A stretch of DNA of 64,000 nt from Candidatus Cloacimonadota bacterium (lineage in GTDB: Bacteria > Cloacimonadota > Cloacimonadia > JGIOTU-2): NCBI GenBank assembly GCA_049903315.1, contig JBNGBT010000005.1:96001-160000 (forward strand), written 5' to 3'. Positions 15,001 to 21,000 of the stretch are shown piece after piece. How positions within the stretch are numbered: the stretch's first letter is position 1; every line of letters begins with the position of its first letter. Made by a program: the position numbers.

Positions 15001-18000
15001 AAGAGTTTTCCTTTCCTCCTCTTCCCAAGCAAATGCGGGATATTATCAATGAAGGTGGACTTTTATTACATATAAAAAATAAAATAGTTGACGAATAATA
15101 AAAAATAGAGTCAACATCGTAACTAAATAAATTTCAGGGGGCTTCATGGAAATTAAACAACTTATCAAAGAGATTAAAGAAAATCTCGAAAAATCTGCAA
15201 ACACAAAATCAATATTCGGCGACGTTATGAAACTCGATGGTATATCGATAATACCTGTCGGCTCTTTTACAATGAAAGGCGGCGGGGGTGGCGGTATCGG
15301 TAGTATGGGAACAAAAACTGAAACTGAATTAGAAGATGACGAGTCAGGATCTAAAACAGGTAAAGGTGGCGGTCTAGGCATGACCGTCGATGTCAATCCT
15401 GTTGGTTATATTAAAATCAAGGATGGCAATGCAGAGTATGTTGAAATTATCGACAAAACGCGTGTCATACTCAACACTCTAAAAGTTCTCATTTTCATCG
15501 TTGTTGTCTCAGGCATCAAGAGTCTCTTTAAACGAAAAAAGAAATAATTGGAGCACCAATGAATAAAACTTCTGCATGGATACTCAGCTTCGGATTGATC
15601 ATCGCAGCACTTGTGTTCGGAATTTTCTTTTATGGATCACGACAGATTGACCAAACAGTGAGAGTAGTAGGATATTCTACCTGTGATTTTGAAGCAAACA
15701 TTGTAAAATGGAGTTTTACTTTCTCGGAAACTATACCAACAGGAAACCTTACCACAGGATATCAAACGATGAATGACAAGCTTCAAACACTGAAAAGAAT
15801 ATGGAATAAGCTAGCGATTTCATCTGAGGACTTCAATATACAACCCATCACTGTGAGAAAGATGTATGGACAATATGGAAAAATTGAAGGCGACATTCTC
15901 GAACAGAATATTTTCATCATCTCAAAGGACCTTGATGCAATTGAAAATCTCGCAATTAATCCTATAGATTTTACTAAAGAAGGTCTGGCTTTTGAGTACT
16001 CAAACATGCAGTATTTCTCAACCGATCTCCCTGATATTAAAATGAAATTACTTGGAGATGCGACAGAAAATGCTATCGAGAGAGCAAACGAAGTTGCCAA
16101 ATCAACTGGAAGTAAAGTTAAAAAAATAACTTCAGCACGCACAGGTGTTTTTCAGATCACAGAACCTTACTCAACGGAGTTTTCTGATTATGGAATGTAC
16201 CAAACTTCGACGAGAAAAAAATCAATCCGCGTAACAGTTACCTGTACGTTTACTATCAACTAGTCCGATGGAGGACAAATGAGCTTACGAGAAGATGTTT
16301 TTGCCTGGTTCAAAGCACATCCAGAAGAATTAAAGAAAGAAGGATATGGCTCAAATGCCGCATTAAGGAATGCCTTTCCTAATGAAGACAGAAAAACTCT
16401 TTCAAAGTATAAGATCCAATATTCAAAAGATATGAAAGAAGAAAATCTGTCTGAAAAACCTGTGGAAAAAGTGAAAAAAGAGATCAAAGAGGAAATATCT
16501 CAGGAAGATCTTAAAATTGGTGATCGAGAATTTGATGAGATAATCAATAAAATGAAAGAATGCCCCGCAGCTGGTTTCATAAAAAAGAATCATTTCTTCA
16601 TTTTAGCAGGTCTTGTTTTTATTATTATCTTTTTCATTTTCAATCCATTTAAAAAGGATTAGCAACGATAAGATTTCAGTCTTCTAAATGAAGTTCACTT
16701 TCATTAAACAAAAGATAATGAATCAAGTGCTTTATGCACTTATTCCCATTTTATTATACGCCATTTATCTCTTTGGATGGCGTGTTTTATTTATAGTGCT
16801 TATTACCAATCTATTTGCTTTTCTTACTGAATACATTTTTATCAAAAACAAACCTAAGGGCAAAGTATCGACCGCCGTTTTTGTGACAGGAAGTCTTCTT
16901 GCACTCACTCTCCCACCAACGATCCCATTGTGGATGGCAGCAGTCGGCGCAGTCGTAGCAGTAAGTTTTGGAAAAATGGTCTTTGGCGGTTTTGGAATGA
17001 ATATGTTCAATCCTGCAATTGTAGGTAGGACTTTTTTATACATCGCTTTTCCCAATGCAATGACAGTACAATGGATGAAACCTTTCACTTCTTTACCTGG
17101 GGGATTTTCACATTTTTCTCAAGCACAGTATGTGACAGCTGCCACACCGATGATACAATTTAAACAAGCAGGTGTGATCACAGAAATGCCTAAACTCTTT
17201 TTTGGAATGATACCCGGTAGTATTGGAGAGACATCTGCTTTATTAATAATAATTGCAGCACTCTATTTGCTTTTTACAAAAACTGCAAAATGGCAGCCAA
17301 TGGTTACAACTCTTTTCAGCTTTATAATTTTCACACTGATCTTTTACGGGAAGAATCCATTATTTTTTCTCTTAAGCGGGGGTATCATGTTTGGTTCTGT
17401 TTTTATGGTTACAGATCCGGTCTCGATGCCTAAAGAGAAATATTCAATCTGGATATATGGTATTTTAATAGGTTTTCTCACTGTTTTCATCAGGAAGTTT
17501 TCTCTCTTTGCAGAAGGATTTATGTTTGCTTTGCTCATCGCAAATACATTTATGCCAATTATTGAATATGCGATGAAGAAACTTACTTCAAAAAATATAA
17601 AGCCAGTGGTATAATGCAAGCACAGAAGAAGCTTTTTTCTGAGACGAAATTCTATCCCATTTTTTTTATGATCATGATAACGATAATTTGTGTGGGTATT
17701 CTGACCACCTTCTATCATATGACCAACAAGCGCGTTGAAGATTATCAAGCGTTACAAATTCAGAAACAGGTTTTGGAAACTTTCGAGCTTTCCACTGAAG
17801 CTGTTTCAGAAGATTATCACAAATATATAACAATGCATACAAGAGACACCCTCACATTCTATGAAGCAAAGAGAGATAATAATGTGATCGGTCATTGTTT
17901 TCCTGTTCAGGGAAGCGGCTTATGGGGAACGATTCGGGCACTTGTTGCACTTGATAAAGATATGTCGAAGATAATTGGTTTCACAATTGTTGAACAGAAT

Positions 18001-21000
18001 GAAACTCCAGGACTCGGAGCAAGGATAACAGAAAAGTGGTTTTTGGATCAGTTTAAGAATAAACCAATAGGTAGCAATAATAAAGTTATCAAATTCACTC
18101 TCATTCCCGAGGATGAAAAAGCGAACAAAACAGAGATACAACAAATAACCGGTGCAACTGCGTCAAGCAGAGCTGTCGTGAATATCTTATATAATAACCT
18201 TGTCGAGATCATACAAAAAATCAAAAATTCATGACCAAAAAACAGATACTACTCAATAGTCTTTTTACGGAAAATGCTGTCTGGAGGCAGATCCTCGGTA
18301 TTTGCTCTGCACTGGCTGTGACAAATCTCATTATGAATAGTCTTGTCATGGGCTTGGGGGTGATCTTTACTCTCGCGTGCTCAAGCTTCACTATCTCACT
18401 TCTGCGCAATTATATTCCTAATAGAATTCGTATGATGGTCCAGGTGCTCATTATTGCCTTCTTTGTGATCATTGTGGATTTATTTCTTAAGGCATTTCTC
18501 CCGAATATAAGTCATGCTCTGGGACCGTATGTAGGACTTATAATTACGAACTGCATAATAATGGGAAGAGCGGAAGCATTTGCATCTAAAAACACACCTG
18601 TTAATTCAGCAATAGATGGGATTGGAGCAGGTGCCGGTTATGCGCTTGTGCTGTTGATCATTGCTTTTTTCCGCGAATTATTAGGATTCGGAACAATTTT
18701 CGGTGTGCAGGTTTTAGGAACTTGGTGGACGAAATGGTCGATCATGATTATGGCGCCAAGCGCATTCTTTATGCTCGCACTGCTCATGTGGTTTGTCTAT
18801 ACTATGAAAACAAAAACAGGGAAAAATTAATATGGGAATCAGTGCATTCATCATCTTTATGGCAGCAATCTTCACGAGTAATATTTTACTCACGAATTTT
18901 TTGGGAATGTGCTCTTACCTCTCAGTATCAAAACAAGTCGAATCTTCAATAGGATTGGGGCTTGCAGTGTTTTTTGTGATGACATGTACAACTGCTCTGA
19001 ATTACGCAGTATATTATTTTATACTTGTGCCTTTCGATCTTATATATCTTCAATATATCATTTTTATTATTATAATTGCTGCATTTGTACAGCTCATAGA
19101 GATGGTGATCGAACGGTTCTCTCCCGTGCTTTATTACTCGTTGGGAATTTTTCTGCCGCTCATTACTGTCAATTGCGCGATACTCGGAGTATCACTTTTT
19201 ATGATCATCAGGCACTATACTTTTATACAATCTGTTGCGTTTGGTGCGGGAAGCGGAATCGGGTGGATGCTTGCAATTCTTGCTCTTGCGGGTATCCGCG
19301 AAAGAGTCAATGAAAAATTTGTTCCAGTTGGTTTGCGTGGTGCAGCTCTCAGTCTGATAATCACGGGCATTATGGCACTTGGTTTTATCGGTTTTTCCGG
19401 TATTGCAGTTATTCAATAAAATGATCCTATCTATTCTCATCACTATCGGGATCGTTGCTGGAATTGGTGGTTTCCTTGCGTTTTTGCTCGTCATTGCAGA
19501 ATCGACTTTAACAAATTACGGCGAATGTACGATTACGATAAATGAGAAAAAAGAACTTAAAGTTAAAGGTGGAAGCTCATTACTTAATATTTTAAATAAT
19601 AATAAAATTTTTCTTTCATCAGCATGTGGCGGACGCGGAAGCTGTGGATTCTGCAAATGCAAAGTAACTGAAGGTGGTGGTCCGCTTCTCCCAACAGAAA
19701 CCCCGTTTCTCGATGAAGATGAGAAAAAAAATAATATTCGACTTGCCTGCCAGGTGAAGGTTAAACAAGACATCAAAATTGAAATTCCAGAAGATATTTT
19801 TGCAATACAGGCATTCACAGGAAAAGTTACAAAAATCATCGATCTTACCTATGATATCACAGAGTTGATCATACAGCTCACAAAGCCGGAAAGCATCAAT
19901 TTCAAAGCCGGTCAGTATGTTCAATTCGTTGCTCCAAGATATGAAAAAAGCAAACAGTCTGTTACTCGGGCATATTCAATTGCAAGTAGCCCGTACCAAA
20001 AAGATACAATCCAGCTCATCATAAAAAAAGTGCCGGAAGGATTGTGCACAACCTATATTCATGAGTATCTCAAAGAAGGAGATAGTGTGTCCTTTACCGG
20101 ACCTTTTGGTGATTTTATTATCAAGGAAACTCAAAATGATATGCTCTTTGTTGCAGGAGGTTCTGGCAAAGCTCCGATAAAATCTATGCTGGAATTTCTC
20201 AGTGCACAAGGTTCAAAACGAAGAATGGTATATCTTTTCGGAGCACGCACGGAAAAAGATCTTTATCTGACCGATTTATTTGAAAAATTGGAAAAGGAAC
20301 TGAAAAATTTTATATATGTGCCCATTCTCTCACAACCGGAAGAAAATTCGGGATGGAAAGGAAAAACCGGCTATATCATGCCATATTTGAAAGAGTATAT
20401 TAAAGACGCTGCACAGATGGAAGCATATCTCTGCGGAAGCCCTGGCATGATAGATGCAGTAAAAAAAGAACTACATCATCTTAAAATTCCGGCTGATAAT
20501 ATCTTTTATGATTCTTTCAATTAAGGAATACAATGAAACAAACACTTCAAGAGAAGAAAATACAAGAGAATATGCAGCCAGGCGTGATCACTTTATCCGG
20601 TTTTCTGGGTAATGATAACAGGCATCTTCATGACATTATTGCAGAAGACAGAAATACTCTTGAAAGACTGAATATTTCTCAAGAAGAGATTGCTGATAGA
20701 CTTCAGTATTTTACAAATCTGGCATGGGATAGTTACGATGGTTTTATTACTATCGACGATATCTATCAGGTTGAATATAAAAGCTACAGAGGAAGAATTG
20801 CATGTCCTTTTTCCCATTCCGGCATGTATCCCAAAGGAACCATCATCCTGAAGAATCTCACCATTGGAAAAGAAATCTGCTGGACTCCTCTCAATATACA
20901 TATGATCCGGGAGCATTGTTTTTTCGAAGGGAAAGGATCACCTCACAGGATCGAGCCATCTGAAGTGAGTAAAATTATCTTCAAATAAATCCTTTTTAAA

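Follow-up and report, generated by a model that had tools for sequence, protein, structure and literature searches.

Gene Row

The window analyzed here is a 64,000-nt stretch of a Candidatus Cloacimonadota genome that is 96% complete, and all coordinates count along this stretch. Seven co-oriented open reading frames occupy positions 16279–20988 of the forward strand, with gaps of −4 to 25 nt between them (Table 1). The survey's finding described five Nqr/Rnf-like genes with a reading frame on either side, and all seven lie where it placed them, with Pfam in agreement. The five are referred to below as B′, C, D, E, and F, and the gene behind F as X. B′ and F are encoded separately and are not fused. 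No RnfB is found in the row, its place being taken by F, and no rnfC lies upstream of B′ in the surveyed Cloacimonadota loci. A complete rnf operon, separate from the row, is present in the genome and likewise in the 7 of 7 relatives checked.

Table 1. Reading frames of the row, with coordinates along the window
Feature	Coordinates	Strand	Assignment and basis
127-aa ORF	16279–16662	+	C-terminal hydrophobic stretch; no family match
NqrB′, 308 aa, RnfD-sized	16688–17614	+	PF03116; residues mapped onto V. cholerae NqrB
NqrC/RnfG-like FMN-binding shuttle, 206 aa	17614–18234	+	PF04205
NqrD-like membrane subunit, 199 aa	18231–18830	+	PF02508; passes NF006777 NqrD (245 vs 235)
NqrE-like membrane subunit, 195 aa	18832–19419	+	PF02508
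Short NqrF, 367 aa	19421–20524	+	Membrane helix, [2Fe-2S], FAD, and NAD(P)H domains (Pfam)
Gene X, 151 aa	20533–20988	+	Conserved sixth gene by gene order; predicted NqrF partner

B′ passes the TIGR01946 rnfD model (221, cut-off 207) and fails the nqrB model (181, cut-off 350). The NqrE-like protein scores 218 bits with nqrE and 217 bits with rnfA, both below cut-off, and F just misses TIGR01941 (289.6, cut-off 295); its PDB matches are 8a1t_F and 7xk3_F. The C protein contains the flavinylation motif TGAT, and ApbE is encoded in the genome, as previously noted. Promoter-like sites number 36 (24.1 expected) and terminator-like sites 6 (4.0 expected); none was relied on.

It had been suggested that both flanking proteins might join the complex. 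This holds for X, on gene order and predicted F binding, but not for the upstream 127-aa frame. The latter is genus-specific: just 4 of 244 loci contain it, each in a close relative (83–94% identical), and no such gene precedes B in the other loci surveyed; it is therefore rejected as a pump subunit. It belongs to no Pfam or NCBIfam family, and an Atlas search gave no usable match.

Residues Kept and Lost in NqrB′

With reference residues taken from PMC10643135, B′ retains the equivalents of V. cholerae NqrB T162, G198, N200, N203, A205, F338, F342, and D346, together with the FMN threonine. Its residues T67, G103, N105, N108, A110, F239, D243, and T153 are conserved in 79 rows, and a cytoplasmic set (Q8, K96, G101-F102, and A200) is invariant in 79/79. 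The B′ threonine lies in an FMN-attachment motif. The retained F338 and F342 are gate residues; at the position of D397, B′ has Glu, which two solved RnfD chains also have there.

Equivalents of G140/G141, of E157-G158-F159, and of the N-terminal helices of NqrB are missing, and the positions of G140, G141, and F159 read A44, F45, and V64. These helices form the quinone pocket of NqrB (PMC12174285). In Rnf, the anchor for RnfC consists of about 20 residues at the N-terminus and 10 at the C-terminus of RnfD (PMC9588780). At most 10 residues stand ahead of the first conserved Met in 51 of the 79 B′ proteins, and the aligned ones carry no arm motif. B′ is predicted to be an ion-translocating subunit with an FMN-Thr and a riboflavin site; it lacks the quinone site and the N-terminal arm.

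Absence of NqrA and of Quinone Synthesis

NqrA was reported to be missing, and our searches agree. The sole PF05896 match in the genome (E 4.9e-5) is the RnfC encoded by the separate rnf operon, and tblastn with two NqrA-type proteins returned RnfC and Fe-S repeats only, or nothing. Across the 158 Cloacimonadota genomes of our survey set (at least 90% complete), the NqrA SLBB model gave one strong match, located in a separate canonical operon of genome G145; the weak matches that were checked were RnfC in 7 of 7 cases. A hidden NqrA or an incomplete assembly is ruled out by the 107 genomes carrying an A-less B gene, several of which are single-contig.

No set of host genes for ubiquinone or menaquinone synthesis was found in this 96% complete genome. 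For its single UbiA-family gene, the best-scoring assignment is an archaeal-lipid-type prenyltransferase, and a GGGP synthase gene adjoins it; neither MqnA/D nor cytochrome bd was found; in the parts checked, the claim of a missing quinone pathway is upheld. A gene of the UbiA (quinone prenyltransferase) family above cut-off is missing in 57 of the 107 pump genomes, some of them single-contig. In a tree of B+D+E with 26 rows, the 14 A-less rows group together (100/99) and fall with Nqr at the split from Rnf (100/100). Its own clade, the lost quinone-site residues, and the hosts without a quinone prenyltransferase-family gene support the earlier view that the row is a quinone-independent relative of the Na+-NQR, a branch of the Rnf/Nqr family that lacks NqrA.

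NqrF and Gene X

The four Fe-S cysteines of F are invariant across 107 rows, and both inserts of canonical NqrF are missing. X follows nqrF in Cloacimonadota, Planctomycetota, and Ilyobacter. Alignment against X-less F proteins reveals two signatures of X-linked F, residues 174–179 and S340, both at the predicted F–X interface. The structure model of X has a pLDDT of 94, and the predicted F–X complex scored 0.72, compared with 0.00 for the best of three controls; the mark used for such scores was reached by 116/157 solved and 2/215 mismatched pairs, and it is a rough guide here, with our own alignments. The prediction runs share at least 74% of contacts, with partner pLDDT of at least 86. These results support X as part of the conserved module and as a predicted NqrF partner. 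In the model, X is clamped over the FAD and nucleotide cleft of F, and it might block the cleft.

X has no passing match in Pfam, NCBIfam, or PDB sequences and a weak link to DUF7919. The best fold matches (Foldseek E 0.44, VIA-align Z 2.7) establish neither a new fold nor a function. Among 30 scanned of the best 150 of 1,748 profile matches, X is fused to rubredoxin in P0186 (three cluster members) and P0182, to a rubrerythrin-like domain in P0147, and to a nitroreductase in P0184; in three of these clusters there is just one sequence. A further X-redoxin "fusion" (P0210) was set aside, being a single sequence on a 793-base contig. In a word search for longer fused X forms, none of 7,999 candidates scored, a result that carries little weight.

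Exchange with a Soluble Rubredoxin-Linked Reductase

The earlier count of Rnf-Nqr genes next to an NqrF-type gene, 2 of 22 genomes of the order, was reproduced, but it hides how common the F-type gene is across the phylum, where 147 of 232 genomes have it. Within the survey set, an A-less B gene occurs in 107/158 genomes and an Hrb-type rubredoxin-linked flavin reductase in 26/158, and the overlap is 0. Hrb is described in PMC12288474 as an FMN-rubredoxin protein that uses NAD(P)H to reduce a flavodiiron protein. Fisher's test gives p = 4e-15 for this exclusion, a value that overstates the case because kin are not independent. The exchange is repeated inside three genera (g1, g59, and g60), and in family f15 the Hrb-type reductase stands behind Rbr-Rd-Rbr-like genes, in the slot held by B′CDEFX in other genomes of that family. 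The swap between the pump and the Hrb-type reductase is what is new here.

The Hrb-type reductase is also missing in 22 of the 47 genomes without F+X, including the single-contig G004, and nearly all of these keep rubredoxin; other routes therefore exist. Because rubredoxin is present in 151/158 genomes, its co-occurrence alone is uninformative. PF18267, the usual NADH:rubredoxin reductase domain, was matched in 0/158 genomes and in 4/14 controls. The present genome also encodes a flavin reductase that is only distantly related (22% identity), as well as a protein resembling Nox/CoA-disulfide reductase, and the swap is therefore limited to the Hrb-type subfamily.

In 5 of 24 Planctomycetota loci, the genes run Rbr-(FprA)-Dfx-(Ftn)-Rbr-like-B′CDEF-X-Rd on a single strand. 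No detoxification gene lies nearby in 26 of 40 Cloacimonadota and 10 of 24 Planctomycetota loci, and the Rd-FprA cluster of this genome is on another contig. The 10 detoxification-linked Cloacimonadota cases all belong to one family, and the Planctomycetota cases may represent one event.

Proposed Mechanism and Alternatives

We propose that B′CDEF and X together form an ion-translocating NAD(P)H:rubredoxin oxidoreductase, a reading that we consider somewhat probable. Its gene set, its kept and lost residues, and its distribution come from sequence, and the binding of X to F is predicted; we infer direction, ion, acceptor, and coupling. NADH or NADPH would be oxidized by F, with X clamped over the FAD/nucleotide cleft, and electrons would cross the membrane twice, from the [2Fe-2S] center of F through the D/E cluster, C-FMN, and B′-FMN to riboflavin. 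The single ion gate would lie in B′, and the translocated ion is probably Na+. Since neither NqrA nor RnfC is part of it and a quinone pocket is missing, the riboflavin face would be free for a small soluble one-electron carrier. This carrier would most likely be rubredoxin or a stand-alone rubrerythrin-like diiron protein, passing electrons on to flavodiiron protein, rubrerythrin, and desulfoferrodoxin. The survey's finding had posited an acceptor other than quinone and named none; the first part stands, and the evidence points to rubredoxin and the oxygen-detoxification enzymes.

Alternatively, rubredoxin might be reduced at the F–X module, with the membrane arm branching off to a different acceptor or, via C-FMN, to the periplasm. 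X is predicted to sit on F and not on the output side, and a membrane-helix-less F occurs with X, without BCDE, in eight loci (L036, L166, L182, L186–L189, and L205), one of them between FprA and Rd, one in an FprA/Rbr-like cluster, and five behind thioredoxin reductase; rubredoxin could therefore be reduced at F. The X–Rd fusions would tether Rd to F, and the Hrb swap is blind to which end reduces Rd. However, soluble F+X coexists with Hrb in G145, which the full pump does in none of the genomes surveyed. Moreover, the B′ return path to riboflavin is intact, with its cytoplasmic set invariant, and its retention implies that an acceptor is needed there. No conserved periplasmic acceptor gene was found among the 64 neighbors scanned. 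We regard this arrangement as unlikely.

Less probable still is that the pump operates as proposed but delivers to another soluble acceptor (flavodoxin, a nitroreductase-type flavoprotein, a thioredoxin-linked protein, or the Cys/His site of X), the link to rubredoxin reflecting shared regulation only. A nitroreductase gene adjoins B′ in 4 of 40 loci and lies near X in Ilyobacter, in addition to the one fusion. C91, H95, H123, and H128 occur together in 76/107 X proteins, and five genomes of one genus keep X alone after a clean loss of BCDEF. However, the Cys/His set is not invariant, and the slot-for-slot swap with a rubredoxin-linked reductase would be left unexplained.

It is very doubtful that the row borrows RnfC from the rnf operon and acts as an ion-coupled NADPH/NAD+ transhydrogenase. 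The complete rnf operons here and in the relatives would permit it, and zwf follows X-Rd in some Planctomycetota loci. An acidic residue at F position 305 is missing in 105/107 X-linked rows compared with 0/5 X-less rows, which would suit NADP(H). Nevertheless, the RnfC-anchoring arm (PMC9588780) is missing from B′, and the Hrb swap would find no explanation. Least credible is an ordinary Na+-NQR that has merely shed NqrA, which has no cofactor and no assigned direct function (PMC12174285), and that uses scavenged quinone: D passes the NqrD cut-off, but B′ lacks the quinone-pocket helices, with G140/G141 and F159 replaced, the genome has no bd-type quinol oxidase, and the two inspected Cloacimonadota operons with an NqrA-type gene keep quinone-site features or look canonical in NqrB, have menA adjacent, and lack X.

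More tentatively, and with slightly less than even confidence, we suggest that the row and X represent a third functional branch within the Rnf/Nqr family, a Na+-pumping NAD(P)H:rubredoxin oxidoreductase that includes a new subunit at the nucleotide cleft. It would allow strict anaerobes free of quinones and cytochromes to energize their membrane as they reduce O2, H2O2, superoxide, or NO via flavodiiron proteins and rubrerythrins. This would be a hidden form of oxygen respiration, exchangeable for a soluble reductase that is not coupled to ion transport. We found no proposal of rubredoxin as acceptor, or of the sixth gene, in the full-text literature searched, which lay mostly outside subscription journals and excluded supplements. 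The acceptor of NqrA-less Nqr has been called "unknown" since 2014 (PMC4148951), and rubredoxin is now a candidate. The question can now be assayed, given this candidate acceptor, a sixth subunit whose binding site is predicted, and a host in culture (Ilyobacter polytropus DSM 2926). If the proposal is true, many fermenting anaerobes also conserve energy, with neither quinones nor hemes, when they defend themselves against oxygen; genome papers that call the row an NADH:quinone oxidoreductase (e.g., PMC8542988) would need correcting; and X would be a partner of a type new to FNR-family reductases.

Comparison with Known Systems

The Na+-NQR (NqrABCDEF of V. cholerae, 7XK3 and 8A1T) shares with the row the B-C-D-E-F order, the F-type input, and the flavin, riboflavin, and gate residues of B, and it is the sister group of the A-less rows in the B+D+E tree. 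The row differs in lacking NqrA, the quinone-binding helices and residues, and the two F inserts, and in having X, and its hosts often cannot make quinones. Rnf (RnfABCDEG of C. tetanomorphum, 7ZC6) resembles it in the membrane core, in an RnfD-sized B′ that passes the rnfD model, and probably in an output to a soluble one-electron Fe center at the riboflavin face. Unlike Rnf, the row has no RnfB or RnfC, its B′ has no RnfC-anchoring arm, and it falls on the Nqr side of the tree.

The same five-gene row without nqrA is on record from Thermotogota and Bacillota, so its novelty, as claimed in the survey's finding, is not sustained: such a row with a nonquinone acceptor was noted in 2014 (PMC4148951) and 2018 (PMC5924567). 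In the portions available of these papers and of PMC6256511, nqrBCDEF without nqrA is reported for Pseudothermotoga thermarum, P. lettingae, Clostridium ultunense, and Ca. Izimaplasma, with the acceptor given as unknown or nonquinone; those portions mention neither a sixth gene nor a loss of quinone-site residues, and they make no link to rubredoxin. Hrb (the flavin reductase-rubredoxin fusion of Moorella thermoacetica) and the soluble NADH:rubredoxin oxidoreductases have the same proposed net reaction, from NAD(P)H through rubredoxin to flavodiiron protein or rubrerythrin, and the Hrb-type reductase takes the same gene slot in relatives; in contrast to the pump, these enzymes are soluble, unrelated in sequence, and conserve no energy. 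Finally, the NQR/RNF-like flavinylation systems of Meheust et al. (2021, PMC8238504) are also partial Nqr/Rnf sets with an NqrF-type NAD domain, but they are fusions of NqrB with that domain and a single membrane crossing, whereas here the genes are separate and two crossings are proposed.

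Gene Row and Extent of the Module

The survey's finding of a row of five genes, coding for an NqrB-like subunit of 308 aa (B′) and Nqr-like subunits C, D, E and F, holds: these genes and both flanking ORFs are intact, present and closely packed. A separate complete rnf operon and ApbE were confirmed in the same genome, and NqrA was not found there. By Pfam and NCBIfam, B′ groups with RnfD in size and score and D with NqrD, E is intermediate between NqrE and RnfA, and F scores slightly below the NqrF cut-off.

Among 232 Cloacimonadota genomes, 147 carry an F-type gene, 151 carry X (the 151-aa ORF 3′ of F) and 144 carry both. 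In 40 Cloacimonadota loci picked to span families, X stands immediately 3′ of F in 38, and kinase genes are inserted between them in the other 2; neither nqrA nor rnfC was found upstream of B′, three of these loci starting at or inside B′. The identical six-gene order occurs on a plasmid of the fusobacterium Ilyobacter polytropus. We also sampled 301 genomes of Planctomycetota, the phylum of the Sedimentisphaerales control locus L002, and X is present in 28. In the best 24 of these 28 X loci, F is always directly 5′ of X (24/24), with BCDE complete in 15, broken by a contig end in 2 and absent in 7. By sequence, named relatives of X are also on record for Spirochaetota and WOR-3. Among 244 loci, 4 have the 127-aa ORF upstream of B′, and these are closely related. 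Since X is conserved after F and the 127-aa ORF is rare, the module is B′CDEF-X; of the two flanking proteins proposed as partners, X is thus retained and the 127-aa ORF is not.

Coordinates of additional features
Location	Positions	Features
L203 (G000:C33)	2914-5401	Bacterial genes for ether lipids of the archaeal type, side by side: polyprenyl synthase, DGGGP-synthase-like gene, GGGP synthase
L163 (G146)	5015-11562	First gene RnfC/NqrA-like, still with two 4Fe-4S motifs; NqrB with N-terminal extension; short NqrF; menA next
L002	5436-11231	First gene RnfC/NqrA-like, still with two 4Fe-4S motifs; NqrB with N-terminal extension; short NqrF
Window	14568-15098	Aconitase C-terminal (LeuD-like) small-subunit gene; sugar-nucleotide genes before it; no adjoining large subunit

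Subunit B′ and Quinone Capacity

B′ residues were mapped onto Vibrio cholerae NqrB, with reference residues from the accessible part of PMC10643135. Across 79 rows, B′ preserves the residues that contact riboflavin, the two phenylalanines of the gate and the threonine for FMN. The N-terminal helices that build the quinone pocket of NqrB (PMC12174285, in part) are missing, as is the arm by which RnfD is described to hold RnfC (PMC9588780, in part), and the positions of G140/G141 and F159 are occupied by A/F and V. In a tree of B, D and E with 26 rows, the 14 rows lacking NqrA group together in a single clade (100/99). Its sister group consists of canonical Nqr joined by one FeS-bearing NqrA form (96/96), and a second such form branches below both. 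This thinly sampled tree (26 rows) suggests that an ancestral A/RnfC-like subunit was lost. The L163 and L002 operons, which branch off beneath canonical Nqr, have the look of transitional forms between Rnf and Nqr.

The reported absence of quinone genes is borne out for the families searched here. The only UbiA-family gene of this genome resembles an archaeal-lipid prenyltransferase and adjoins a GGGP synthase, and neither MqnA/D nor cytochrome bd gave a match in this genome. A UbiA-family gene above the cut-off is missing in 57 of 107 pump genomes, including 10/10 of family f8; for the remaining 50, matches were assigned to type for this genome alone. As internal controls, we read two operons of Cloacimonadota that include an NqrA-type gene: both adjoin menA, and neither contains X. 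X is also absent from the genome of L002. Genome G145 (L235, L205) combines canonical nqrABCDEF and menA with a flavin reductase-rubredoxin protein (Hrb) and a soluble F+X pair within a cluster of flavodiiron protein (FprA) and rubrerythrin (Rbr)-like genes.

Protein X and Its Predicted Contact with F

The model of X is confident (pLDDT 94), its family is broad (1,748 clusters), and family and fold searches gave no passing match. The complex of F (residues 28-367) with X scored 0.72, the best control reaching 0.00; the score mark is reached by 116/157 solved and 2/215 mismatched pairs, rates that are only rough here because we supplied the paired alignments. Contact agreement between runs was at least 74% and partner pLDDT at least 86; no comparable complex is known because X has no solved relative. 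The predicted interface on F (residues 176-179, 202-211, 276, 304-305, 318, 339-346 and 364-367) comprises the FAD loop and the nucleotide cleft. Common to the 107 X-linked F proteins are a loop at 174-179 and the residues S248 (107/107) and S340 (106/107), signatures lacking in the five X-less F proteins compared. An acidic residue at a nucleotide-site position bears on the preference for NADH versus NADPH. Position 305 is acidic in 2/107 X-linked versus 5/5 X-less proteins, and use of NADPH is therefore possible; Ilyobacter F has Glu at this position. We propose from the model that X may complete the nucleotide site of F, or may gate it.

X as a stand-in for NqrA on B′ was ruled out, since X is kept with soluble F in 8 BCDE-less loci and alone in five genomes of one genus. 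In the latter (L154-L158; G004, G007, G010, G015, G016), BCDEF is cleanly gone, X lies behind a PASTA-domain gene, and R86, a conserved residue in the modelled interface, is K in all five. In Planctomycetota, loci L182 and L186-L189 have a gene for thioredoxin reductase followed directly by soluble F and then X. Fusions join X to rubredoxin, to a domain resembling rubrerythrin or to nitroreductase in at least four clusters. Clusters P0121, P0190, P0197, P0228 and P0236 carry the X domain as tandem repeats in long proteins, also with other C-terminal parts, and show a weak connection to DUF7919.

Rubredoxin as the Proposed Electron Acceptor

We lean slightly towards B′CDEF-X being a putative rubredoxin-reducing ion pump. 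Among 158 Cloacimonadota genomes at least 90% complete, rubredoxin (Rd) is present in 151 and the standard NADH:rubredoxin reductase domain in none. Flavin reductase of the Hrb type, which has rubredoxin nearby or fused to it, occurs in 26 and the B gene of the NqrA-less type in 107, with zero overlap. This exchange recurs inside genera g1, g59 and g60. The reductase of family f15 lies behind Rbr-Rd-Rbr-like genes, the position of B′CDEFX in relatives. The exchange is compatible with rubredoxin reduction at B′ or at F-X alike. In five Planctomycetota loci, the full pump lies within an oxygen-detoxification cluster, with rubredoxin directly 3′ of X. Rubredoxin potentials lie near −50 to 0 mV. 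Nqr is thought to have started with menaquinone, at −80 mV (PMC4014512, in part). On these values the energetics of rubredoxin as acceptor would fit an Nqr-type pump. Hrb is described as passing electrons from NAD(P)H to a flavodiiron protein (PMC12288474, in part). The accessible part of PMC5924567 places the nqr genes of C. ultunense at CUESP_0375-0379 and rubrerythrin at CUESP_0386, and has the two far apart in P. lettingae.

Several observations speak against rubredoxin. Of the 47 genomes without F and X, 22 also lack an Hrb-type reductase. Detoxification neighbors are absent in 26/40 Cloacimonadota and 10/24 Planctomycetota loci, and the loci having them stem from few lineages. In this genome, the Fur-permease-Rd-FprA-Dfx-Ftn-Rbr cluster (Dfx, desulfoferrodoxin) is on a different contig from the pump; also encoded are a Nox-like protein and a flavin reductase of distant kinship.

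In L166, L168, L169, L171 and L175, X-Rd is followed by a gene of glucose-6-phosphate dehydrogenase size (identified in L166), hinting at NADPH supply, and then by a Rex-like regulator. In L047-L050, L053, L069, L217, L223 and L224, formate-tetrahydrofolate ligase lies between the detoxification cluster and the pump or flavin reductase, often with a dihydroorotate-dehydrogenase-like flavoprotein.

Relation to Known Systems

An nqrBCDEF row without nqrA has been reported with its second reactant unknown (PMC4148951), with the conjecture that its acceptor is something other than a quinone (PMC5924567), and in Izimaplasma (PMC6256511); in Antarctic Cloacimonadota the row was entered as a quinone reductase (PMC8542988), as far as the accessible parts of these sources go. 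PMC3372971 merely names rnf and nqr. Our search of main texts, without supplements, found neither a sixth gene nor a rubredoxin link for the nqrA-less row. The row was published before, and its function is not in print. The claim of a new third Rnf/Nqr member stands as to its place outside both systems, but not as to the novelty of the row itself.

By sequence, B′CDEF-X is Nqr-like up to riboflavin. It differs from the NQR/RNF-like systems in the accessible part of PMC8238504, and it belongs to neither Na+-NQR nor Rnf: Na+-NQR possesses NqrA and the quinone-pocket helices of NqrB, both lacking here, whereas in Rnf the RnfD arm holds RnfC, and B′ has no such arm.
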